Shown here one piece after another: positions 9,577 to 61,636 of a stretch of DNA of 64,000 bases. The translations under genes were made by a program, and so were the position numbers. A model generated the notes under the pieces. The model was given only the letters and a program-made list of their open reading frames with translations. It searched no databases and was not told where the DNA came from. Numbering within the stretch: the first letter of the stretch is position 1; each line of letters begins with the position of its first letter. Origin of the DNA: a virus (lineage: Duplodnaviria; Caudoviricetes); IMG/VR virus record IMGVR_UViG_3300022305_000326, positions 36,741 to 100,740 of that record; one strand, given 5' to 3'.

Positions 9577-9842
9577 TGTCATTTACAAATAATAATTTTG
9601 ATATGCGTGACCCGTTAGTTAAACTGGTCATGTCATTCTTGTCTGAACAGAGTGGTATCCCTGACGACAGCGATATGGAGACTGGTGAGGTAGAACAGCA
9701 GCCGACAGCAGCAGAGTTCAAGAAAGGTACTCAGCCCGAAAATGAACTCACTGACACCATTCAAATAAATCCTGATATGTCATCAACTACACAGTCTCCA
9801 GATAGTCAAGACAACTCATATACCTACAACGCCCAACAGTAA
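9576..9842 (+). CDS. Hypothetical protein
   Basis: Translationally coupled ORF (TAATG overlap). Confidence 0.5.
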   Translation: MSFTNNNFDMRDPLVKLVMSFLSEQSGIPDDSDMETGEVEQQPTAAEFKKGTQPENELTDTIQINPDMSSTTQSPDSQDNSYTYNAQQ

Positions 9843-9844
9843 TT

Positions 9845-10231
9845 ATGACATTTAATGCGATTCAGTATTCCTTCCAGTTATGGGTGACGGAAGGAAATTC
9901 ACCACTAAAATTCAGAGAATTCAAAGATGAATATAGTAAATTCATCTTCATAGGAAGGATACTGAAATCATATAAGTTGAAAAATAACCTAAACATAAGA
10001 TTATTACTGAATCACATTATAATCCTTTATAATATTTTCGGTGAAAAGATAACACCTCTATTCTTCCTCACCACTGATGAAAGTGTATGGCCAGAAATCC
10101 ATGCAATCCTTCAATACCTAAATCGTGTTCCGATCCCACCAACTATAGTGATAAGTGAATATTCTATAGTCATTGATCTGAACGAATACCCTGCTAATGT
10201 GGACGTTATTAAACTACTTGAGACGTTATGA
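9845..10231 (+). CDS. Conserved T4-like phage hypothetical protein
   Basis: RLLLNHIIILYNIFG motif, recalled from T4-like phages. Confidence 0.6.
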   Translation: MTFNAIQYSFQLWVTEGNSPLKFREFKDEYSKFIFIGRILKSYKLKNNLNIRLLLNHIIILYNIFGEKITPLFFLTTDESVWPEIHAILQYLNRVPIPPTIVISEYSIVIDLNEYPANVDVIKLLETL

Positions 10232-12611: not shown

Positions 12612-13589
12612 ATGGAAACGCCGAATATTTTAAAGAAACAGGATGTCTATATTATAGAATATCCAGAAGCAGTAAAATTTGCAGATACACAGAACTCCGT
12701 ATTCTGGACCGCAGATGAAATTGACGTATCAAAAGATGTACAAGACATTATGACAGGTATGACGGAATCAGAACGTTATGCCACAATTGAAGTGTTAAAG
12801 TTATTCACGCAATATGAATTAGCTATCGGTAATGAATATTGGGGCGAACGTGTTAAGAGGGATTTCCAAAGACCTGATATCCAGAGAATGGCAAACTCGT
12901 TCTCATATTTTGAAATCAATGTACATGCACCGTTCTATAATAAGTTAAACGAAGCACTACATCTTAATACCAAAGAATTCTTGAGTGAATATAAGCAAGA
13001 CCCTGTTCTGTCAAGTCGTATGGCATTCATTGATGAACAGTTGAATAGTCCCGACACATTACATTCCCTTGGTGTTTTCTCGATGGTAGAGGGCGCAATC
13101 CTTTATAGTAATTTTGCATTTTTGAAGCATTTCCAGTCACAAGGAAAGAACAAGATGTTAAACGTTGTTCGTGGAATTAACTTCTCTGTTCGTGACGAAA
13201 ATCTTCATAACGAAGGTGGTGCATGGTTGTTCAGAACACTACTGAAGGAATCAAACATTTCGGACGAAAAGACGGATGAATTGTTTAAGGGTATCATTGA
13301 TGCAGCCCATCATATTAGAGAACATGAACATAGAATCATCGCTAAGATGTTCTTGAAGGGACCAATTGAAGGTGTCACCCAAATTCAAATGAATAATTTC
13401 ATTGATTCCCGCATTAATCTGTGCCTCAGTAAAATCGGCATCCGTAAGATTTTCGATGTGACGTATAATCCTATTGCAGACTGGTTTTATAAAGGTATTA
13501 ATTCTTACACCTTCCATGACTTTTTCACTGGAACAGGTAATCAATACAATCGTAAATGGGATGAATCAAAGTTAGGATGGGCGAATTAA
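12612..13589 (+). CDS. nrdB: Ribonucleotide reductase class I beta subunit
   Basis: FW..E, EINVH...Y, VEG...YSNF, RDENLH diiron motifs. Confidence 0.93.
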   Translation: METPNILKKQDVYIIEYPEAVKFADTQNSVFWTADEIDVSKDVQDIMTGMTESERYATIEVLKLFTQYELAIGNEYWGERVKRDFQRPDIQRMANSFSYFEINVHAPFYNKLNEALHLNTKEFLSEYKQDPVLSSRMAFIDEQLNSPDTLHSLGVFSMVEGAILYSNFAFLKHFQSQGKNKMLNVVRGINFSVRDENLHNEGGAWLFRTLLKESNISDEKTDELFKGIIDAAHHIREHEHRIIAKMFLKGPIEGVTQIQMNNFIDSRINLCLSKIGIRKIFDVTYNPIADWFYKGINSYTFHDFFTGTGNQYNRKWDESKLGWAN

Positions 13590-16195: not shown

Positions 16196-16963
16196 ATGTC
16201 TAGAAAGCGCAGAAAACTAATAAACACCCCACATGCTGCTAGTAAATCCAATGTAGACTATCTCGATTATCACAGCTACGATAACGAGGAATCAAATTAC
16301 CAGAGAGAGTTACCAAAGCGCCGTCAAAAACCAGCACCATTGACAGCCAAGACCGCCAAACAAAAGGAATATATTGACGCAATTTACGGAAGTCCACAGA
16401 TTGTCGTATGCGGTCCAGCAGGCGTAGGTAAGACTTACATTGCAGCTAGAATTGCTGCTGAGATGTTGTCGAATAAAGAAGTCGATAAGATTGTAATTTC
16501 AAGACCGAACGTCAGTTCTTCCAAGTCTATTGGTTACGTTCCCGGCGATAAGAATATGAAATTTCAAGGTTGGGCGATTCCAATTCTTGAGGTATTAAAG
16601 GAATATCTCGGTGAAGGCGCATATGACTATTATCTAAAGAATGAGAAGATTGAATTGGTTCCATTCGAATACATGCGTGGAAGATCGTTCAACAACTGCT
16701 TCGTTATCGTTGATGAATTCCAGTCAACTACAGTTGATGAGGCTATTTGTATAGTGACCAGAATTGGAGAGAATTCCAAACTGATCCTTATGGGTGACGT
16801 TAGGCAGAAAGACATCAAACAAGAAGGTGGTCTTGAGTTTGTTACCAAGATGGTGAAAACTCGATACAATCTGAGAAATTTTGTCAAGCTAATTGATTTC
16901 GATCTGACGGATGTTGTTCGTTCAGGTGTATGCTCAGCATGGGTATACGAGATTTATGACTAA
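16196..16963 (+). CDS. phoH: PhoH-like ATPase
   Basis: GPAGVGKT, YMRGRSF, VDEFQ, TRIG, GD..Q.D, VRS. Confidence 0.95.
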   Translation: MSRKRRKLINTPHAASKSNVDYLDYHSYDNEESNYQRELPKRRQKPAPLTAKTAKQKEYIDAIYGSPQIVVCGPAGVGKTYIAARIAAEMLSNKEVDKIVISRPNVSSSKSIGYVPGDKNMKFQGWAIPILEVLKEYLGEGAYDYYLKNEKIELVPFEYMRGRSFNNCFVIVDEFQSTTVDEAICIVTRIGENSKLILMGDVRQKDIKQEGGLEFVTKMVKTRYNLRNFVKLIDFDLTDVVRSGVCSAWVYEIYD

Positions 16964-16993
16964 ATAATAGTCAACATCTAATAGACGACCATC

Positions 16994-17455
16994 ATGAATA
17001 TCAACGAAGAAGTATCGAATTACAATATAACGTATTCACACGAAATCAATGATAAGGGTGGTCGTCGATTAGAGCAAAGAACTGCTACTGTTTCTGGTCG
17101 TTCAAAGGAACATGCACATAAACAATTCAGTAGTAGTTCTGCCTCAAAGTTGGCAGGCTTCAAGATTCATTCAGTCGAACCATCAAAGGGATTAGACACG
17201 TTCATGAAAGAATCTCTTGATGACGATAGAAAATTAATTGCCACATATCGTAGGCAGGATCATCTAGACAAAGCCAAGATATCAATGGCAGGCGGAAGAT
17301 TAAGTAACTATCATTTAGCACTGGCTCACAGTAACCAAGCTAAGATCGCTAAGATAAATGGTGACAAAGAACGAGAAGAATCACACACGAAAATGGCCGC
17401 GATACATAAAGAAAAGTATCGAAAGGCCAAAAAGAATGACGATTCAACAAGTTAA
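16994..17455 (+). CDS. Hypothetical protein, possible internal head protein
   Basis: Follows a CTAAATA motif; INE and FMKE gp21-type sites; His/Lys rich. Confidence 0.5.
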   Translation: MNINEEVSNYNITYSHEINDKGGRRLEQRTATVSGRSKEHAHKQFSSSSASKLAGFKIHSVEPSKGLDTFMKESLDDDRKLIATYRRQDHLDKAKISMAGGRLSNYHLALAHSNQAKIAKINGDKEREESHTKMAAIHKEKYRKAKKNDDSTS

Positions 17456-17990
17456 GGTAGGTATAGATTATTCAATTACGTGTCCCACTATCTGTATAGA
17501 CGGTGGGACATTTTTCGAGTTTCATTACACGAAAGCTGAAAATAGATTCACTGGAAAGTGGACTAGTGGAATCTATAAGTTCGTTGGACACAAATATCCA
17601 GAATACAAATCTGATCTTGAACGCTACGATCAGATTTCTGACATCTTTATAAACGCAATGTCAGCATATAAACCAACTCTCATTAATATTGAAGCATATT
17701 CGTATGGATCGAATGGTAAGTCATTCAATCTTGCGGAGAATACTGGGCTGTTGAAATATAAAATATGGAAAACATTCGGTATAGAATGCAAGACCTTTTC
17801 ACCAATGACACTGAAAAAGGTCGCAACTGGTAAGGGTGTTGGTAAGAAAGATGTCATGTATAAGGCATGGGATGAACAAATGCCATTCCTAAACCTATAC
17901 ACTGTTTTCAAAGTCAAGCCGACTAAAAATGTTGGTAGTCCAATTTCTGATATTATCGATTCTTATTATCTTACAAAGTGTGGGGTTTAG
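17436..17990 (+). CDS. RuvC-like (RNase H fold) nuclease
   Basis: GIDYS, IEAYSYG, LAE, P.TLKK, DIIDS acidic motifs. Confidence 0.7.
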   Translation: MTIQQVKVGIDYSITCPTICIDGGTFFEFHYTKAENRFTGKWTSGIYKFVGHKYPEYKSDLERYDQISDIFINAMSAYKPTLINIEAYSYGSNGKSFNLAENTGLLKYKIWKTFGIECKTFSPMTLKKVATGKGVGKKDVMYKAWDEQMPFLNLYTVFKVKPTKNVGSPISDIIDSYYLTKCGV

Positions 17991-41247: not shown

Positions 41248-42486
41248 ATGAGTAACATTGAATTTTTTGAAACGAACGGGAAGCCAATCAAGGCTTGGAC
41301 TAATGGTGTTCCTGTTGAAGAAGATGCTAAGAAACAGCTAAAACTGATTTCTGGCCTACCTTTTATTTTTAAGCATATTGCGGTTATGCCAGACGTTCAT
41401 CTTGGAAAGGGTGCAACTGTTGGGTCTGTTATTGCAACCAAGGGGGCCATCATTCCCGCTGCTGTGGGGGTTGACATCGGATGCGGAATGATGGCCGTCA
41501 AACTGAACATAAAGGCGAATGATCTACCGGATAATCTGGCTAATCTTCGCGGAATGATCGAAGCCAAGATTCCTCATGGTCGTACTAACAATGGCGGTGA
41601 AGGTGATAAGGGTGCAAGAAACGCATCAACCTTAGAAGGCACACGTAAGGTTGATGTTATGAATCTTAATCTTAAACTGCAAGATTTTATTAATAAGAAT
41701 GATCACCGTCATCTTATTAAACCTGCATCTAGACTGGTCAATCATATTGGTACTCTCGGTACTGGTAATCATTTCATTGAAGTCTGCCTTGATACGGAAT
41801 CAAATGTTTGGATCATGGTCCATTCTGGTTCGCGTGGTATTGGTAATGCAATTGGTACTTATTTTATCGACAAGGCTAAGGAAGAAATGGCTCGGTATTT
41901 CATTAATGTTCCAGAACAGGATTTGTCATATCTTGTACAAGGAACCAAGATTTATGATGACTATATTGAAGCAGTGAGTTGGGCACAGGATTATGCAAGA
42001 CTCAACCGTGAAATCATGATGAATGATGCAATTGAATGTATGAAGAAATTCGTGCCACATATTGCTGTAGATATCGTAGAAAGTGCAGTCAATTGTCATC
42101 ATAATTATGTTTCGATTGAAAATCATTACAATGAAAATGTTATTGTGACTCGTAAGGGTGCGGTATCGGCACAGAAGGATCAGTTGGGGATTATTCCGGG
42201 TTCTATGGGAGCAAAATCTTTCATTGTTCGTGGTAAGGGTAACAAAGAATCGTTCTGCTCATGTTCTCATGGTGCTGGCCGTAAAATGTCCAGAACTGCG
42301 GCTAAGAAAATGTTCACGATTGATGATCACATTAAGGCTACTGAAGGTGTTGAATGCCGCAAGGATGCTGATGTTATTGATGAAACCCCACAATCGTATA
42401 AGGATATTGATGCAGTTATGGCGGCACAGTCAGACCTTGTTGAAATTGTCGCAACGCTGAAGCAAATTTTGTGCATCAAAGGCTAA
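41248..42486 (+). CDS. rtcB: RNA ligase RtcB
   Basis: MPDVHLG.GATVGSV, GVDIGCG, GTLGTGNHFIE, HSGSRG, HHNY, PGSMG, SHGAGR. Confidence 0.97.
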   Translation: MSNIEFFETNGKPIKAWTNGVPVEEDAKKQLKLISGLPFIFKHIAVMPDVHLGKGATVGSVIATKGAIIPAAVGVDIGCGMMAVKLNIKANDLPDNLANLRGMIEAKIPHGRTNNGGEGDKGARNASTLEGTRKVDVMNLNLKLQDFINKNDHRHLIKPASRLVNHIGTLGTGNHFIEVCLDTESNVWIMVHSGSRGIGNAIGTYFIDKAKEEMARYFINVPEQDLSYLVQGTKIYDDYIEAVSWAQDYARLNREIMMNDAIECMKKFVPHIAVDIVESAVNCHHNYVSIENHYNENVIVTRKGAVSAQKDQLGIIPGSMGAKSFIVRGKGNKESFCSCSHGAGRKMSRTAAKKMFTIDDHIKATEGVECRKDADVIDETPQSYKDIDAVMAAQSDLVEIVATLKQILCIKG

Positions 42487-56420: not shown

Positions 56421-58619
56421 GTGAAACTTAATTATGCGGCTGACAACGTGCAGATTTTTGGTGGTGAAGATGACACTACCAATTATACGATTCAGGGAAG
56501 TGCTAAGATGTTCCAGATTCTATCGTCCGGTGTTTATTCGGACAAGATTCTGGCAGTAGTTCGTGAAATTTCATGTAATGCATACGATAGCCATATTCAG
56601 GCGAATAACGTAAAGACACCAATTGATGTGCATATGCCGACATCTTGGGAAAACTGGTTCGCCGTCCGCGACTATGGCGTTGGTATGTCAGAAGAAACTA
56701 TTAAGAAGGTTTATACTTCTTATGGTAATTCAACCAAGACCGACAGTAACGAAATGACCGGCGCACTTGGTATCGGTTCGAAATCACCATTTGCTTACAC
56801 CAAGTCTTTCACTATCACTTCCATTTTCGATGGAATTAAGTCAGTCTATTCCGCTTATATCGGTGATGATTATAAGCCTAAACTGTTAAAGATGACTTCG
56901 GTTGAAACTACCGAAAATAATGGCGTCGAAATTAAGGTACCTGTTGAAGCAACGGATCGTTATAAGTTCGTCGAGGCTGGTTCTAAGGTGTATCGTTGGT
57001 TCGATACGAAACCGAAGCTGAACGTGACCATCGATATTCATGATCCACTCGCAGGATTACGTGTACTATCCGATAAGGATGGTATGAAGATTACATATTC
57101 AGTGAATTCTTGTGCCCATTGGGCAAAGCAGGGTACTGTTGCATATCCAGTGAACGTTGCTAATTTTAGACATCTTTTGAGTGATAATGTTTTTAGTGCG
57201 ATGACCTATACGTCCACAGTTGTCGAGTTTGATATGGGCCAGTTGGACATTACAGCTTCACGAGAAGCATTGTCATATGATATTGTGACTCAGCAGAATC
57301 TTGCAGATAAGTATGAAAAGAGATATAATGAACTTATTGCAGAAATTCTGACGAATCTTGGTAATGAGCAGTATTACTTTGACTGTGTTCTGAATTATCA
57401 GACAAACCGAGAGTTCTACAATCGGATCGGAGTAACGAAAAATTACATCCATAAGAAGTCCGGTCGTGTCGCAACTGAACGAAACGTAAATCTTGGTGAT
57501 CTGGTAACTAAAATCGTAACTAAGGCAGCAGTTCCACCAACAGTTACAACTCCACTTATTCCTGAAGAATGGCACTATAATGCAGAAATGCAATATGGTT
57601 ATTACAGAAGCAATAAGTTTAAGGTCGCAGGTTACGGAAACAGTGGTTGGAATTATGTAATCGATAACGTTCCGACTAAAATCTTTATCGTGGATGGAAA
57701 TTTGAAGTTGTCTGAGAATCAGATTGCCGGAAGAATCCAGACCGCTATGGGCAGCGATTATATCAAGTTTTATGTGATGAGGGTTGCCATCGGACAGAAC
57801 GCAGCCAATTTTAAAACTGAAATTGATAAATTGATCGACGCAAGTTCTTCAGTTGTTATCGAAGTTGGATCATTGCCGAAATATGTCACTCAGAGAGCCG
57901 CATACACGAAGACCACATATGCTGCTAGTGTGTTCACCACGTACAATAACGAGTGGGCAAAGGAAACCGTTGTAGAGTCGGTTGTACCAAATACAAAGAC
58001 ATACTATATGGATATTTCTATGGCGGGTAGAGACAAGTTTAAGCACATGAATATTGAAAGGTTCGTGAGTGCGATGATCACTCTGCATAAGCACGCATAT
58101 CCAAATATTGATATTCGCGTTGTTGGTCTTAATAAAAATCAGGCAAAAAATTTGGGTGCTACATGGGAAAATCTGGAAGAACACGCTGTTAATATCGTTC
58201 AAGACTTCCGAAAAATTAAAGCCGCTAGCATTGCTATGAGAGAATATTATCACAAATATGATCAACTCTTCAATTCACATTTGTTGAACACCCACACTAC
58301 TCATCTGTGGAATTTTATTGTGAAATATGCTGTCAATGGTGATCTGTTGTGTGCGGACAAAATTGATAAGTTCGTGAATTTTTGTAATGCTAACGCAATT
58401 AGTAATGCAGATCACGACAAATATCTGGCGATTAAGGGTAGTAGTATTTGTCGTGATGTAGTATTCGACAATACCGACATTGACAATAATCATAAATTGA
58501 TCCATGATATGTATGTCGGTATTCCGAAGCTGCCAAAACTTGCCAGCATGATCAATAATGTTGTAGATAAAGATGCCGCCACGGAACTCGTACAGTTCCT
58601 TAACCTTTACATGAAATAA
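56421..58619 (+). CDS. rIIA: rIIA protein
   Basis: LS..VYSDK..AVVRE...NA.D, RDYG.G, STK..SN...G.LG.GSKSPFAYT GHKL-like domain. Confidence 0.92.
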   Translation: MKLNYAADNVQIFGGEDDTTNYTIQGSAKMFQILSSGVYSDKILAVVREISCNAYDSHIQANNVKTPIDVHMPTSWENWFAVRDYGVGMSEETIKKVYTSYGNSTKTDSNEMTGALGIGSKSPFAYTKSFTITSIFDGIKSVYSAYIGDDYKPKLLKMTSVETTENNGVEIKVPVEATDRYKFVEAGSKVYRWFDTKPKLNVTIDIHDPLAGLRVLSDKDGMKITYSVNSCAHWAKQGTVAYPVNVANFRHLLSDNVFSAMTYTSTVVEFDMGQLDITASREALSYDIVTQQNLADKYEKRYNELIAEILTNLGNEQYYFDCVLNYQTNREFYNRIGVTKNYIHKKSGRVATERNVNLGDLVTKIVTKAAVPPTVTTPLIPEEWHYNAEMQYGYYRSNKFKVAGYGNSGWNYVIDNVPTKIFIVDGNLKLSENQIAGRIQTAMGSDYIKFYVMRVAIGQNAANFKTEIDKLIDASSSVVIEVGSLPKYVTQRAAYTKTTYAASVFTTYNNEWAKETVVESVVPNTKTYYMDISMAGRDKFKHMNIERFVSAMITLHKHAYPNIDIRVVGLNKNQAKNLGATWENLEEHAVNIVQDFRKIKAASIAMREYYHKYDQLFNSHLLNTHTTHLWNFIVKYAVNGDLLCADKIDKFVNFCNANAISNADHDKYLAIKGSSICRDVVFDNTDIDNNHKLIHDMYVGIPKLPKLASMINNVVDKDAATELVQFLNLYMK

Positions 58620-58628
58620 GAGGTAAAT

Positions 58629-59417
58629 ATGATTAAGAGTAAAAAGAAGATTAACGCTATTTTGACGAGTAGCACCCTTGAAATCACGTTCACAAGTGAT
58701 GCTTCAACTGCATCGATTGCCAGATCAGTGACAAATTTCCCATCTTTCATTGAGGCATTGAATGACGATGATGAAAAGGCTCTACGACTATTAGTCGATG
58801 CAGCAAGCCGAATTCGCTCAGTGAACGGAAACATTCGTATCGACGGCGAAAACGTGTTCTATAAGGATCACCAGATTCACGGTACGTTCGTTGATCGTCT
58901 GCTTGAATATAGTGGCCTTAAGCTGGAAACGTCAGCTATTATCGGCTTCATCGAAAAGTTGATGCTGAATCCGTCATTCAAGGTCATCGAACACTTGTAT
59001 ACGTTCCTAGAGTATGGTAAGCTACCTCTTACTGAAACGGGCAACTTCCTAGCATACAAGGTGGTCCGTGGCGACTATCTTGACAAGCATAGCGGAACTA
59101 TGGATAATAGTGTCGGCAAGGTCGTTACCATGAACCGCAGTCAGGTAGATGATGAACGAGATAACACCTGTTCAAGTGGTCTGCATTTCTGTTCGTTTGA
59201 ATACATCAAACATTTCCTAGCATCATCAGGTGATCGTATTGTTCTGGTGGAAGTGAATCCTACGGATGTTGTTTCTATCCCACGAGATTACAATAACACT
59301 AAGGCACGCTGTTGCGGTTACACTGTTGTTGCTGATGTTACAGACCAGATGACATACGGTACAAAGCCTGCTAAAGTTATGACGCAGACCTTTGTTCGTG
59401 ACGGTTGGAGCAACTGA
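58629..59417 (+). CDS. rIIB: rIIB protein
   Basis: NPS, G.FLAYK.V, V.M.R..VDD....TCS.GLH, V.P.DVVSIP.DY...K.R.C.Y. Confidence 0.93.
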   Translation: MIKSKKKINAILTSSTLEITFTSDASTASIARSVTNFPSFIEALNDDDEKALRLLVDAASRIRSVNGNIRIDGENVFYKDHQIHGTFVDRLLEYSGLKLETSAIIGFIEKLMLNPSFKVIEHLYTFLEYGKLPLTETGNFLAYKVVRGDYLDKHSGTMDNSVGKVVTMNRSQVDDERDNTCSSGLHFCSFEYIKHFLASSGDRIVLVEVNPTDVVSIPRDYNNTKARCCGYTVVADVTDQMTYGTKPAKVMTQTFVRDGWSN

Positions 59418-59425
59418 GAAAGATG

Positions 59426-59454
59426 TTGACAGCCAGTATGCAATAGGGTATACT
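59426..59454 (+). promoter_or_regulatory. Sigma70-type promoter of the tRNA region, with an inverted repeat
   Basis: TTGACA-N17-TATACT; ACAGCCAGTAT/ATACTGGCTGT. Confidence 0.7.
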
Positions 59455-59472
59455 GGCTGTGTTGTAGAGTTA

Positions 59473-59549
59473 GGGCGTGTAGCTCAATTGGTCAGAGCAC
59501 GAAACTCATAATTTCTTGGTTGTCAGTTCAAGTCTGACCGCGCCCACCA
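59473..59549 (+). tRNA. tRNA-CAU (probably Ile2/lysidine type; Met possible)
   Basis: Cloverleaf, loop CTCATAA, encoded CCA. Confidence 0.85.
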
Positions 59550-59554
59550 CTAAT

Positions 59555-59782
59555 ATGTTATCCAGAGATTTAATTATGAAAGAACTGTTTGACGCTGAAG
59601 GTAACTACACCAAGCTCGCCTTATCTTTCGAGCTTCGTCTCCGGGACACTCCAATACTCGATCTTATTGCATATGCAAGAGAACAGTGTTATGATATGCG
59701 TCATGCAGAATACATCATCACTTCGGCTATTCAGGAATCGTTTCTCATCGAACGCCTTAAACACCGAAGTTCTACAAATTAA
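59555..59782 (+). CDS. Hypothetical protein
   Basis: ORF trimmed to start after the tRNA. Confidence 0.45.
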   Translation: MLSRDLIMKELFDAEGNYTKLALSFELRLRDTPILDLIAYAREQCYDMRHAEYIITSAIQESFLIERLKHRSSTN

Positions 59783-59784
59783 AA

Positions 59785-59858
59785 GGCTTTATAGCTCAAC
59801 GGTAGAGCAGTCATCTCTAAAATGATCAGTCAGGGTTCAAATCCCTGTGAAGCCACCA
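59785..59858 (+). tRNA. Amber suppressor tRNA (anticodon CUA)
   Basis: GGCTTTA/TGAAGCC acceptor, GCTC/GAGC D-stem, GTCAT-CTCTAAA-ATGAT anticodon arm, CAGGG-TTCAAAT-CCCTG T-arm, CCA. Confidence 0.85.
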
Positions 59859-59882
59859 GTTTCAAATATGTATGAGGTTTAT

Positions 59883-60068
59883 ATGGAATATATTCTAGTT
59901 TTATTTTTGTATGTCGGGATTTTTGGCGACAGTGATTCTGTCACAGTCACAAATATTCCCGGATTCCATTCAAAGGAATCGTGTATGCAGGCCGGAAAAC
60001 TTGCTGCTCCATTGGTTGCAAATACTAAGAAGGAATTGAGTTTTGTTTGCCTTCCACGAGGTAATTAA
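59883..60068 (+). CDS. Small secreted/membrane protein with a Cys pair
   Basis: GAGG RBS, hydrophobic N-terminus, F.SKE.C...C. Confidence 0.5.
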   Translation: MEYILVLFLYVGIFGDSDSVTVTNIPGFHSKESCMQAGKLAAPLVANTKKELSFVCLPRGN

Positions 60069-60523
60069 TGTTAATTAAACAAAATGCAGTGAGACATGTT
60101 CCGACTGGCGAGATTATCGTTTCTCGTCATCGACATGATTATGCAACATCTAAGGATGGTAAGTATTTTCTGGATGGCGGTACGGATTACACCAGAACCA
60201 ATATTCCTCGTGAAAATAGGGATTGGGAATGGTTGACAATCAACAGCCAGTATGATACGATTGTTGAAATGAAGGAACGGTTTGTGTGGGGTAGTCGTGG
60301 TAAGAATGGTGATCAACCACTTACCTACAATCTGATGAAGGACTTGACAGAAGATCATCTACGTGCTATCATCACTCATATCATGGAAGTTCATGGTAAT
60401 GATGAAACGAAGTATATCAATGAGCCAGCTTATGTTATTGCCGATGCTATTCTTTGGGATAAATTTGTAGCAAAAACAGAAGCTTGCAGAGAATTGAGTA
60501 AAAATATCGAAGAAAGTGCTTGA
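60068..60523 (+). CDS. Conserved phage hypothetical protein
   Basis: S.HRHDY...DGG.DY.R and WG.RGK.GDQPL...HL.AI. Confidence 0.6.
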   Translation: MLIKQNAVRHVPTGEIIVSRHRHDYATSKDGKYFLDGGTDYTRTNIPRENRDWEWLTINSQYDTIVEMKERFVWGSRGKNGDQPLTYNLMKDLTEDHLRAIITHIMEVHGNDETKYINEPAYVIADAILWDKFVAKTEACRELSKNIEESA

Positions 60524-60561
60524 CACCGAGATAATCTTTACTATATACTGTACACACATTG

Positions 60562-60729
60562 ATGAAGAATAAAATGCTCAAAGAGTTACTTGATAAATTA
60601 GTTGGACAATTGCCGGGAGTTGATTCCTTGGCCAATTTTCCGGCATCTGTATTGAGTAATATAAAAGTTATTTTGTTGTCAACCGCAGTAGTAGTTTCAG
60701 TTGTTATAGTGTATAATCTAGTGACCTAA
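60562..60729 (+). CDS. Small protein with a C-terminal TM helix
   Basis: 55 aa ORF between a TTGACA promoter-like site (60520) and a terminator; below the track cutoff. Confidence 0.4.
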   Translation: MKNKMLKELLDKLVGQLPGVDSLANFPASVLSNIKVILLSTAVVVSVVIVYNLVT

Positions 60730-60749: not shown

Positions 60750-60784
60750 AGGCCACTAAGAGATAAAACTCTGGTGGCCTTTTT
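60750..60784 (+). terminator. Intrinsic terminator
   Basis: AGGCCAC...GTGGCCT followed by a T run. Confidence 0.7.
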
Positions 60785-60803
60785 AGTTTGAGAAGAAAGT
60801 TGT

Positions 60804-60832
60804 TGACAGATGCATTGTAGTGTGGTAGAATA
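60804..60832 (+). promoter_or_regulatory. Sigma70-type promoter driving the ncRNA/tRNA operon
   Basis: TTGACA-N17-TAGAAT with extended -10 TG. Confidence 0.75.
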
Positions 60833-60842
60833 GCTGAACAAG

Positions 60843-61192
60843 ATAAGAATAAAACGGGTAATGACCAAATCGTCTAAGTGCAATGCTTACCGAAGGTCAC
60901 TTACGGAACTTGACCATATGATGAATATGGTTACCGCGCTATGGGGAATACTTCCACTTTATGTGGACTCTCCGTGAAAGTATAGTTGCATGTTACCTCG
61001 AAACATGCTATATTGGACTGGGTTATAAGTTGACAGCCGATGAATATTAACTTATCGTGGAGTGCGACTGCCGGTGAAATTAAAAGCGCACAACGTTAAC
61101 ATGACCGGCTTAAGTTCGTAACATAAACCACTATCTTGCTCCATGCTTGAGCCAGTGGGTAACGGGGATTAGAGGTTCACCCGTATTTTTAT
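60843..61192 (+). ncRNA. Large structured RNA of unknown class (~340 nt)
   Basis: No ORF of 60 aa or more; end-closing stem ACGGGT/ACCCGT; at least six internal helices. Confidence 0.6.
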
Positions 61193-61261: not shown

Positions 61262-61355
61262 GCCTGTATAGGTTAATGGTAGACCCCCGGCCTTATACCC
61301 CGGTTTAGCGCCAGATTAGCGCACAGTCTTGGTTCGATTCCAAGTACAGGCACCA
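61262..61355 (+). tRNA. tRNA-Ile(UAU) with a long variable arm
   Basis: GCCTGTA/TACAGGC, loop CTTATAC, GCGC/GCGC V-arm, CCA. Confidence 0.75.
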
Positions 61356-61393
61356 ATTACGTTTTTCGGTATCGCATAACCGTCCAGTTTATT

Positions 61394-61467
61394 CAGTCTG
61401 AGTTGTTACGGTAGCATCAAGGTTTTGGAAGCCTTGGGCGTGGGTTCGACTCCCACCAGACTGACCA
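61394..61467 (+). tRNA. tRNA-Pro(UGG), atypical D-arm
   Basis: CAGTCTG/CAGACTG, loop TTTGGAA, A73, CCA. Confidence 0.75.
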
Positions 61468-61473
61468 ATTAAT

Positions 61474-61550
61474 CCGAAATTAGCTCAGTCTGGTAGAGCA
61501 CTTGCTTTGGGAGCATGGGGTCGCACGTTCAAGTCGTGTATTTCGGACCA
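61474..61550 (+). tRNA. tRNA-Pro(UGG)
   Basis: Canonical cloverleaf, loop TTTGGGA. Confidence 0.9.
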
Positions 61551-61558
61551 GTTTCAAT

Positions 61559-61636
61559 GGTTGCGTGCCAGAGTGATCTAATGGCGTTGCCTGCAAAGCA
61601 AATGTATCGTTGGTTTGAATCCAACCGCAACCTCCA
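61559..61636 (+). tRNA. tRNA-Cys(GCA)
   Basis: Loop CTGCAAA, U73, CCA. Confidence 0.85.

Follow-up and report, generated by a model that had tools for sequence, protein, structure and literature searches.

Phage tRNA arrays are now viewed as counter-defence and translation-tuning modules, and the extra non-tRNA RNAs that they encode have been without an assigned function since the discovery of rnaC and rnaD of phage T4 in the 1970s. The T4 pair are RNAs without an established function (PMC9697503). Both belong to a T4-type tRNA cluster, in which rnaC (species 1, 139 nt) and rnaD (species 2, 119 nt) are annotated beside the tRNA-Arg gene in the same orientation. GOLLD and ROOL, two large ncRNAs likewise without established function, are associated with phage tRNA arrays and are often encoded beside tRNA genes of phages or prophages.

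Two further systems are relevant to an RNA that stands ahead of tRNA genes. In eukaryotes, the 3' end of the long ncRNA MALAT1 is produced by an RNase P cut at a downstream tRNA-like structure, mascRNA. The put RNAs of phage HK022, which are ~70 nt long and fold into two stem-loops, bring about processive antitermination.

At the locus analyzed here, within the terminal 64 kb (hereafter the window) of an IMG/VR virus record of 100.7 kb, a non-coding stretch most likely encodes a genuine ncRNA made ahead of the phage tRNAs. In kind it resembles the stable RNAs of phage tRNA clusters that still await an explanation, among which it is unusually large, and it would be the first product of its operon. 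It shares with rnaC and rnaD its location in the tRNA cluster of a T4-type phage, but there is no sequence similarity to them (local alignments score 14-16, and shuffles average 16-17). The T4 RNAs are about one third of its size and lie at the distal end of their cluster, whereas the new RNA occupies the promoter-proximal head; furthermore, rnaC bears a canonical T-arm sequence (GGTTCGAATCC) near its 3' end, which the new RNA lacks. As a large phage ncRNA beside tRNA genes it also recalls GOLLD and ROOL, but it is half their size or less, has none of their ornate, GNRA-rich architecture, and is seen in two phage lineages.

The phage and the organization of the locus

The record encodes a Gp23 capsid protein, a Gp20 portal, a tail sheath and a family B polymerase, and thus represents a T4-like phage. 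Its capsid protein is at most 61% identical to that of any GenBank phage, the nearest versions being those of Pseudoalteromonas phage XG4, the Methylophilales Melnitz phages and cyanophages, which places it on a deep, uncultured branch. There are 16 tRNA genes in the window, all on the + strand (ARAGORN and Rfam); two lie near 59.5-59.9 kb and the remainder extend from 61.26 kb to the end of the window. The genes rIIA and rIIB lie directly upstream of the ncRNA locus.

The initial annotation had placed a structured RNA behind a strong promoter at the head of a tRNA operon, and the layout collected in Table 1 agrees with this: the promoter is followed by ~350 nt of ncRNA, a tRNA-like minihelix and then the tRNA genes. 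The predicted promoter is of the early type and lies one base away from the position first given, with a predicted +1 at about 60838. Between 60832 and the first tRNA block there are two weaker promoter-like sites (10/12 and 9/12), both within the ncRNA, and the later parts of the tRNA array have strong promoters of their own according to the promoter scan. The ncRNA is non-coding, conserved, and in one transcription unit and orientation with the tRNA genes. The hairpin that appears to close the preceding unit received no call in a simple terminator scan.

Table 1. Features of the ncRNA locus and its surroundings, in window coordinates (L002, the related phage; helix assignments are predictions)
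Feature	Position	Strand	Basis or remarks
Promoter of upstream unit	60520-60549	+	
Small membrane-like ORF of upstream unit	60574-60729	+	
Terminator-like hairpin GGCCAC...GTGGCC with T5 run, closing the upstream unit	60751-60784	+	Read from sequence
Sigma-70-type promoter TTGACA-17-TAGAAT with TG extension	60803-60831	+	Scan score 11/12
Conserved ncRNA body, ~348 nt	60838-61185	+	~95% identity to L002, no ORF, no Rfam match, fold z
P1, 5' strand ACGGGT (end-closing helix)	60854-60859	+	MFE and centroid of both homologues, consensus fold, probability >0.6
Hairpin B, CCGAAG/CTTACGG, loop GUCA	60890-60906	+	Probability >0.6 in both; no change between lineages
Hairpin C, TGACCATAT/ATATGGTTA, loop GATGA	60911-60933	+	Sole L002 change in loop (U60922 to A)
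Hairpin D, ATGGGGA/TCTCCGT around TCCAC/GTGGA	60941-60975	+	Sole L002 change in terminal loop (U60959 to C)
Hairpin E, GCATGTT/AACATGC	60982-61013	+	L002: three substitutions and one insertion, all in terminal loop
3' half, conserved sequence with several candidate folds	61014-61178	+	Complementary words
P1, 3' strand ACCCGT (61179-61184), then ATTTTTAT	61179-61192	+	Sequence
tRNA-like minihelix	61195-61255	+	Stems GGATGG/CCATCC (6 bp) on GCTGG/CCAGC (5 bp), ACCA end, variable interior
First tRNA block: tRNA-Ile(UAU), two tRNA-Pro(UGG), tRNA-Cys(GCA)	61262-61636	+	ARAGORN, Rfam

The stretch is non-coding. The longest frame starting with ATG is 38 aa (60861-60977), and no credible ORF appears under code 11 or with TAG read as Q or TGA as W, nothing exceeding 64 codons from stop to stop; the absence of a long ORF, remarked on at the outset, thus holds also under recoding. 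Recoding was considered in view of a tRNA with a CUA anticodon encoded by the phage, and a protein gene translated through this suppressor was rejected, as the TAG=Q reading yields no ORF. The CUA tRNA (an amber suppressor, labelled 'Pyl' by ARAGORN) is kept in both phages, at 59785-59858 in the window and at 9834-9907 in the related phage. TAG terminates 3 of the 54 long open frames on the + strand.

A sharply bounded block of conservation

A homologue of the ncRNA was seen in one other phage lineage, which was reached via the neighboring DUF7695 protein and comprises L002 (ENA ERZ650262 NODE_1, 155 kb) and an identical Logan contig, L003; the two are counted as one lineage. Both phages share the gene order rIIA, rIIB, small genes, promoter, ncRNA, tRNA-like element and tRNA-Ile(UAU). 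The ncRNA block aligns to L002:10772-11122 with 94.6% identity over 351 columns, and within 60837-61185 L002 shows 16 substitutions and two 1-nt insertions. The surroundings are far less conserved, at 59-82%: identity is 75.6% in the promoter region of the ncRNA (60796-60836), 76.3% in the adjacent small ORF, 59% in the tRNA-like element, 81.9% in tRNA-Ile and 63.5% in the first tRNA-Pro, and about 76% in the protein-coding DNA of the region. At the four-fold degenerate sites of genes close by it is as low as 30-58%. Within the promoter of the ncRNA the hexamers are kept (TTGACA/TATAAT in L002), while the spacer and flanks have diverged.

Conservation sets in at the predicted +1, the two preceding bases being different in L002, and it stops one base past the 3' strand of the closing helix (61185). 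That the conserved block is bounded by the +1 and the end of P1 is the strongest evidence that the selected unit is a transcript. Nearly every base of the ncRNA is under strong purifying selection, and a sequence held more tightly than those of the adjacent tRNAs points to a demanding molecular role.

Conservation in the vicinity is, at the same time, patchy: identity likewise reaches 94-96% in the upstream promoter and terminator, with one loop base different in the terminator-like hairpin and a value of 94% for the segment 60730-60795. At four-fold degenerate sites, identity climbs along 56421-60523 toward the tRNA array, from 30% in rIIA through 52% in rIIB to 58% in the DUF7695 gene. Taken together, the patchiness and this rise imply that part of the contrast between the ncRNA and its flanks could reflect a more recent regional exchange. 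The corresponding proteins are 93% (rIIB) and 70% (rIIA) identical between the two phages, and the gradient points to a mosaic ancestry of the region adjoining the tRNA array.

Predicted fold of the ncRNA

The + strand has a minimum free energy of -102.4 kcal/mol, compared with -88.1 +/- 5.1 for dinucleotide shuffles (z = -2.8; 0 of 100 shuffles equal it), while the minus strand reaches -84.3 kcal/mol (z = -1.44) and the L002 homologue folds with z = -2.4. Helices were retained when their pairing probability exceeded 0.6 in each homologue, computed separately. Six helices pass in both, namely P1, B, C, E and the two nested stems of D; the list includes GACCATAT/ATATGGTT and CCGAAG/CTTACGG. The predicted fold of the + strand is thereby a set of 5' hairpins inside a helix formed between the two ends. 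P1 could continue inward through GACC/GGTT, AATC/GATT and TC/GG, the change of C60865 to U in L002 retaining a G:U pair, and by inspection hairpin E could be extended outward by TATAG/CTATA, which falls below the probability filter.

The distribution of changes between the lineages is in keeping with these helices. None of the 16 substitutions lies in the 78 paired bases of the six robust helices (P about 0.017), five of them, together with an insertion, lie in the 21 bases of their loops (P about 0.002), and 11 are at bases unpaired in the window-only MFE structure (P about 0.006); these P values are rough, since independence is assumed and three of the loop changes are adjacent and perhaps a single event.

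The 3' half (about 61009-61178) has no helix above 0.6 in both homologues. Candidate helices such as ATAAGTT/AACTTAT, GCCGGT/ACCGGC and CCACT/AGTGG can be drawn, three partners are conceivable for the segment 61097-61110, and pairs of the window-only MFE structure in this half are broken by four of the substitutions in L002. The strand ACCCGT that closes P1 has an alternative local partner in ACGGG (61163-61167), with which it would form a weak terminator-like hairpin with a 12-nt loop, and the U-run after P1 is shorter in L002 (ACTTTTAAT). Accordingly, although every complementary word listed in the initial annotation is present where it was placed, its description of the RNA as highly structured applies to the 5' half and the closing helix but not to the 3' half with its competing pairings, for which several of the proposed helices find no support. 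ACTGG/CCAGT loses one pair in L002, the possible pseudoknot GTGCG/CGCAC is unsupported, and the A/U-rich pairing ATAAGAATA/TATTTTTAT, which would lengthen the closing helix, falls in part beyond the conserved block and is weakened in L002 by a U-to-C change and an insertion.

Between the two lineages compared there is no compensatory double change within the ncRNA, and with two lineages and no such change the fold remains a prediction. Over the same evolutionary distance, compensatory changes are found in the acceptor and T stems of tRNA-Ile(UAU) and in the tRNA-like element. Stems that stay invariant while their neighbors covary appear to be held at the level of sequence and not merely of pairing. 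Because compensatory changes would have been tolerable, this invariance suggests that the identity of the bases matters, be it for tertiary contacts, for a protein partner or for alternative pairings.

Two copies of the 9-mer GATGAATAT are present in the ncRNA. The first (60920-60928) supplies the loop of hairpin C with its initial five bases and starts the 3' strand with the remainder, and the second (61039-61047) lies entirely in the loop of the candidate ATAAGTT/AACTTAT hairpin. A 'twin-box' RNA was considered and rejected, as only the first copy is altered in L002 and the copies do not co-vary.

A tRNA-like minihelix as a potential processing signal

The element that follows the ncRNA has neither a D arm nor an anticodon arm and is not called as a tRNA by ARAGORN. 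Its stems are maintained between the phages by compensatory double changes: in the acceptor stem U:A is replaced by A:U, and in the hairpin C:G by U:A. Its interior, which includes an indel of 8 nt, is only ~50% alike. Bacterial RNase P requires, as its minimal substrate, an acceptor/T-like stack that ends in CCA. Given this resemblance, cleavage at the minihelix or at the next tRNA would free the ncRNA, and we propose that the minihelix is the processing signal that sets its 3' end.

The arrangement parallels that of MALAT1 and mascRNA: in each case a long ncRNA is followed by a small tRNA-like structure with no normal anticodon arm and with a CCA end, in which the acceptor/T-like stack is the conserved feature. 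The two systems belong to different domains of life and are not homologous; moreover, in the phage any downstream tRNA could serve the same purpose, and cleavage is deduced from the structure. The locus would nonetheless offer a clean example from a bacterial virus of a long RNA followed by a putative tRNA-like processing handle.

Searches for relatives and for known RNA families

No Rfam 15 family was matched by either copy of the ncRNA at the gathering score or at E <= 10. This includes RNase P (RF00010/RF00011 and relatives), tmRNA, group I introns (RF00028), GOLLD (RF01998), ROOL (RF03087) and the T-box (RF00230), so that the earlier inability to assign the RNA to tmRNA, RNase P or a group I intron is borne out by the models. 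ARAGORN reported neither a tmRNA nor a tRNA in the stretch at default or 80% thresholds, no T-arm precedes the 3' strand of P1 as in a tmRNA, and there is no split ORF or split tRNA flanking the ncRNA. A T-box leader was set aside because, in addition to the unmatched model, the word UGGUUACCGCG (60927-60937), which resembles what we take to be the T-box word UGGNACCGCG, is ~250 nt from the only terminator-like element.

In sequence databases, blastn against 50,697 GenBank phage records gave nothing at E <= 1e-5 and, at E <= 10, a single 30-nt chance match (E = 4) in an archaeal provirus; PLSDB plasmids gave no match. Pattern scans of IMG/VR (four ncRNA words, a two-anchor pattern and the anticodon arm of tRNA-Ile) returned zero or chance matches, an 18-mer scan of JGI metagenomes nine matches, all chance and with unrelated flanks, and a 19-mer scan of GTDB genomes one chance match. 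A covariance model, R1, found no match in the genomes of Pseudoalteromonas phage XG4, Methylophilales phage Melnitz and Sinorhizobium phage phiN3, and there is no paralogue of the ncRNA in the window or in L002.

Scans through the flanking genes gave a similar picture. IMG/VR scans with DUF7695 and rIIB recovered no relatives, and a search of 5.8 billion proteins with the flanking genes recovered the L002 lineage only, the next matches being at ~50% identity; the distant relatives of rIIB and DUF7695 at that level do not adjoin a tRNA array. A third near-identical source (ERZ650251) is a 600-bp contig that ends short of the ncRNA. The drop in the identity of the flanking proteins from 77-94% in the L002 lineage straight to ~50% indicates that this phage clade is barely sampled. 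The neighboring proteins belong to no informative family and include no evident partner protein.

Two functional assignments were discarded on the basis of the window and the record. The complementarity of the ncRNA to phage genes within the 64-kb window is no greater than chance, which removes an antisense regulator of these genes, and the 100-kb record has no reverse transcriptase or TnpB, which removes a retron, DGR or OMEGA guide RNA.

With a non-coding sequence, a predicted promoter, no Rfam or tmRNA match and high conservation, a novel RNA is the best reading, as had been suggested initially; the accompanying term 'class' is generous for an RNA known from two related phages, both uncultured, whose two sequences cannot prove fold or function.

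A proposed trans-acting RNA released from the head of the operon

The reading that we favor, and which we regard as evenly poised between right and wrong, is that the locus encodes a putative stable ncRNA which is cut from the leading part of the tRNA operon transcript, has its two ends held together by P1 and acts in trans via a tightly constrained surface. Host RNA polymerase would start at ~60838 and transcribe the ncRNA and the tRNA genes as one polycistronic unit, with the ncRNA coming first. Host RNase P would cut on the 5' side of the minihelix (about 61194/61195), exonucleases would trim back to the closing helix, giving the 3' end at the point where conservation stops, and the paired ends would protect the resulting RNA. 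The RNA might then act in trans on a host factor, in a tightly packed or protein-bound form, possibly as a scaffold or decoy tied to the tRNA and counter-defence function of the array; it would not work as a simple antisense RNA.

A bolder version, which we hold to be improbable, would make the RNA the founding member of a new class of densely packed catalytic or ribonucleoprotein phage RNAs, its near-invariance stemming from an active site or from tight association with a conserved host machine. Were this true, it could act on tRNAs or on tRNA-directed defences, for instance by processing or protecting the phage tRNAs or by trapping an anticodon nuclease.

Alternative explanations

The most serious rival is a cis-acting leader, either an attenuator or a put-like processive antiterminator, that controls read-through into the tRNA genes; we consider it unlikely, though appreciably less so than the other alternatives. 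As an attenuator it would exploit the competition of the distant ACGGGU and the local ACGGG for the strand ACCCGU, which the U-run follows; as an antiterminator it would modify RNA polymerase and so allow transcription of a long untranslated array. The ncRNA lies immediately after the +1 of the only strong promoter before the first tRNA block, and, like the put RNAs, it is a structured and sequence-constrained element that directly follows an early phage promoter and precedes a long operon. Its 3' end consists of a helix followed by AUUUUUAU, the strand ACCCGU has two alternative 5' partners, and several segments have more than one perfect 7-nt partner (e.g., CATGTTA/TAACATG and ATGTTAC/GTAACAT), a multiplicity that fits a conformational switch and would explain the invariant stems. 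Nevertheless, its ~350 nt are, as a matter of general knowledge, several times the length of known put RNAs or typical attenuators, and it differs from the former also in its closing helix and in the want of any sequence or model match. With 5 bp around a loop of 12 nt, the local hairpin would make a weak terminator, and L002 has a shorter U-run. Neither a riboswitch nor a T-box model is matched at E <= 10, and further along the array has strong promoters of its own. Furthermore, the covarying minihelix that follows looks like an excision signal, for which a purely cis-acting leader would have no need.

The stems that are invariant and show no covariation would also be expected if the stretch had no function as RNA, being instead an element that works as DNA, for example an origin of replication or a region bound by protein, or the product of a recent gene conversion or cassette exchange. 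The rise in four-fold-site identity from 30% to 58% toward the region, which suggests a mosaic history, speaks for exchange, as does the presence of HNH and Seg-like homing endonuclease genes in the tRNA array of L002. Homing endonuclease genes drive local co-conversion in T4-type phages. We judge that there is only a slim chance of this explanation being correct: the edges of the conserved block fall within a base or two of the +1 and of the end of the closing helix, with flanks at 59-76%, the substitutions avoid the robust helices and gather in their loops, and the + strand folds markedly better than the minus strand, which a duplex DNA element does not require.

Some local resemblances could be read as signs that the ncRNA is an RNase P RNA, tmRNA or group I intron that has diverged strongly or been rearranged. 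The ends of the ncRNA are paired, as in P1 of RNase P, CCGGCUUA (61105-61112) equals the 3' strand of E. coli P4, and a GAUGAAU occurs as in J18/2. In addition, the 14-nt word TGCTTGAGCCAGTG (61144-61157) is common to the ncRNA and positions 299-312 of E. coli rnpB, presumably the P15/P5/P18 region of the M1 fold, and no 14-mer was shared with rnpB in 2000 shuffles. The similarity to rnpB, however, ends with this word, and M1 RNA has the shared words in a different order. By inspection, the ncRNA has no 5' strand of the AAG(U)CCGG type that could pair with CCGGCUUA, and the P4 pseudoknot that would mark an RNase P RNA, formed by CR-I (GGAAAGUCCGG, with a bulged U) and CR-V (ACAGAAnCCGGCUUA), is absent. 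L002 alters the 14-mer and changes CCGGCUUA to CCGGAUUA, and the number of short words in common with rnpB is as high for a coding stretch near 42,000 as for the ncRNA. Hence, the 14-mer is probably a chance match. An intron is opposed by the lack of flanking exons, since the promoter abuts the 5' end. With the covariance models silent as well, membership in any of these families is very improbable.

Finally, that the stretch encodes one or more very small proteins, such as the 38-aa frame, which is also open in L002, is hardly credible, as this frame lacks a usably spaced Shine-Dalgarno sequence, its four differences from L002 comprise three non-synonymous (T2I, K3E, M21K) and one synonymous, conservation continues unchanged for 200 nt beyond its stop codon, and the 1-nt insertions of L002 fall elsewhere in the block.

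Other features of the array

Several further observations concern the neighborhood of the ncRNA. At the promoter of the upstream unit (TTGACA-18-TATACT), 48 nt (60517-60564) are identical in L002, spacer included, unlike the ncRNA's own promoter, whose spacer diverges; there may be an extra regulatory site at this position. The tRNA-Ile(UAU) gene (61262-61355) is 94 nt long and has a long variable-arm hairpin of the class II kind, which is unusual for an isoleucine tRNA. The 38-nt spacer that follows it (61356-61393) is 90% conserved in L002 and may be a small functional element in its own right. The counterpart in L002 of the tRNA-Pro(UGG) at 61394-61467 receives no ARAGORN call.

The content of the array differs considerably between the two phages, yet the ncRNA is retained in both. 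L002 has an extra gene of 205 aa after tRNA-Ile, and HNH (12875-13306) and SegE-like GIY-YIG (16936-17571) endonuclease genes lie among its 28 tRNA genes.
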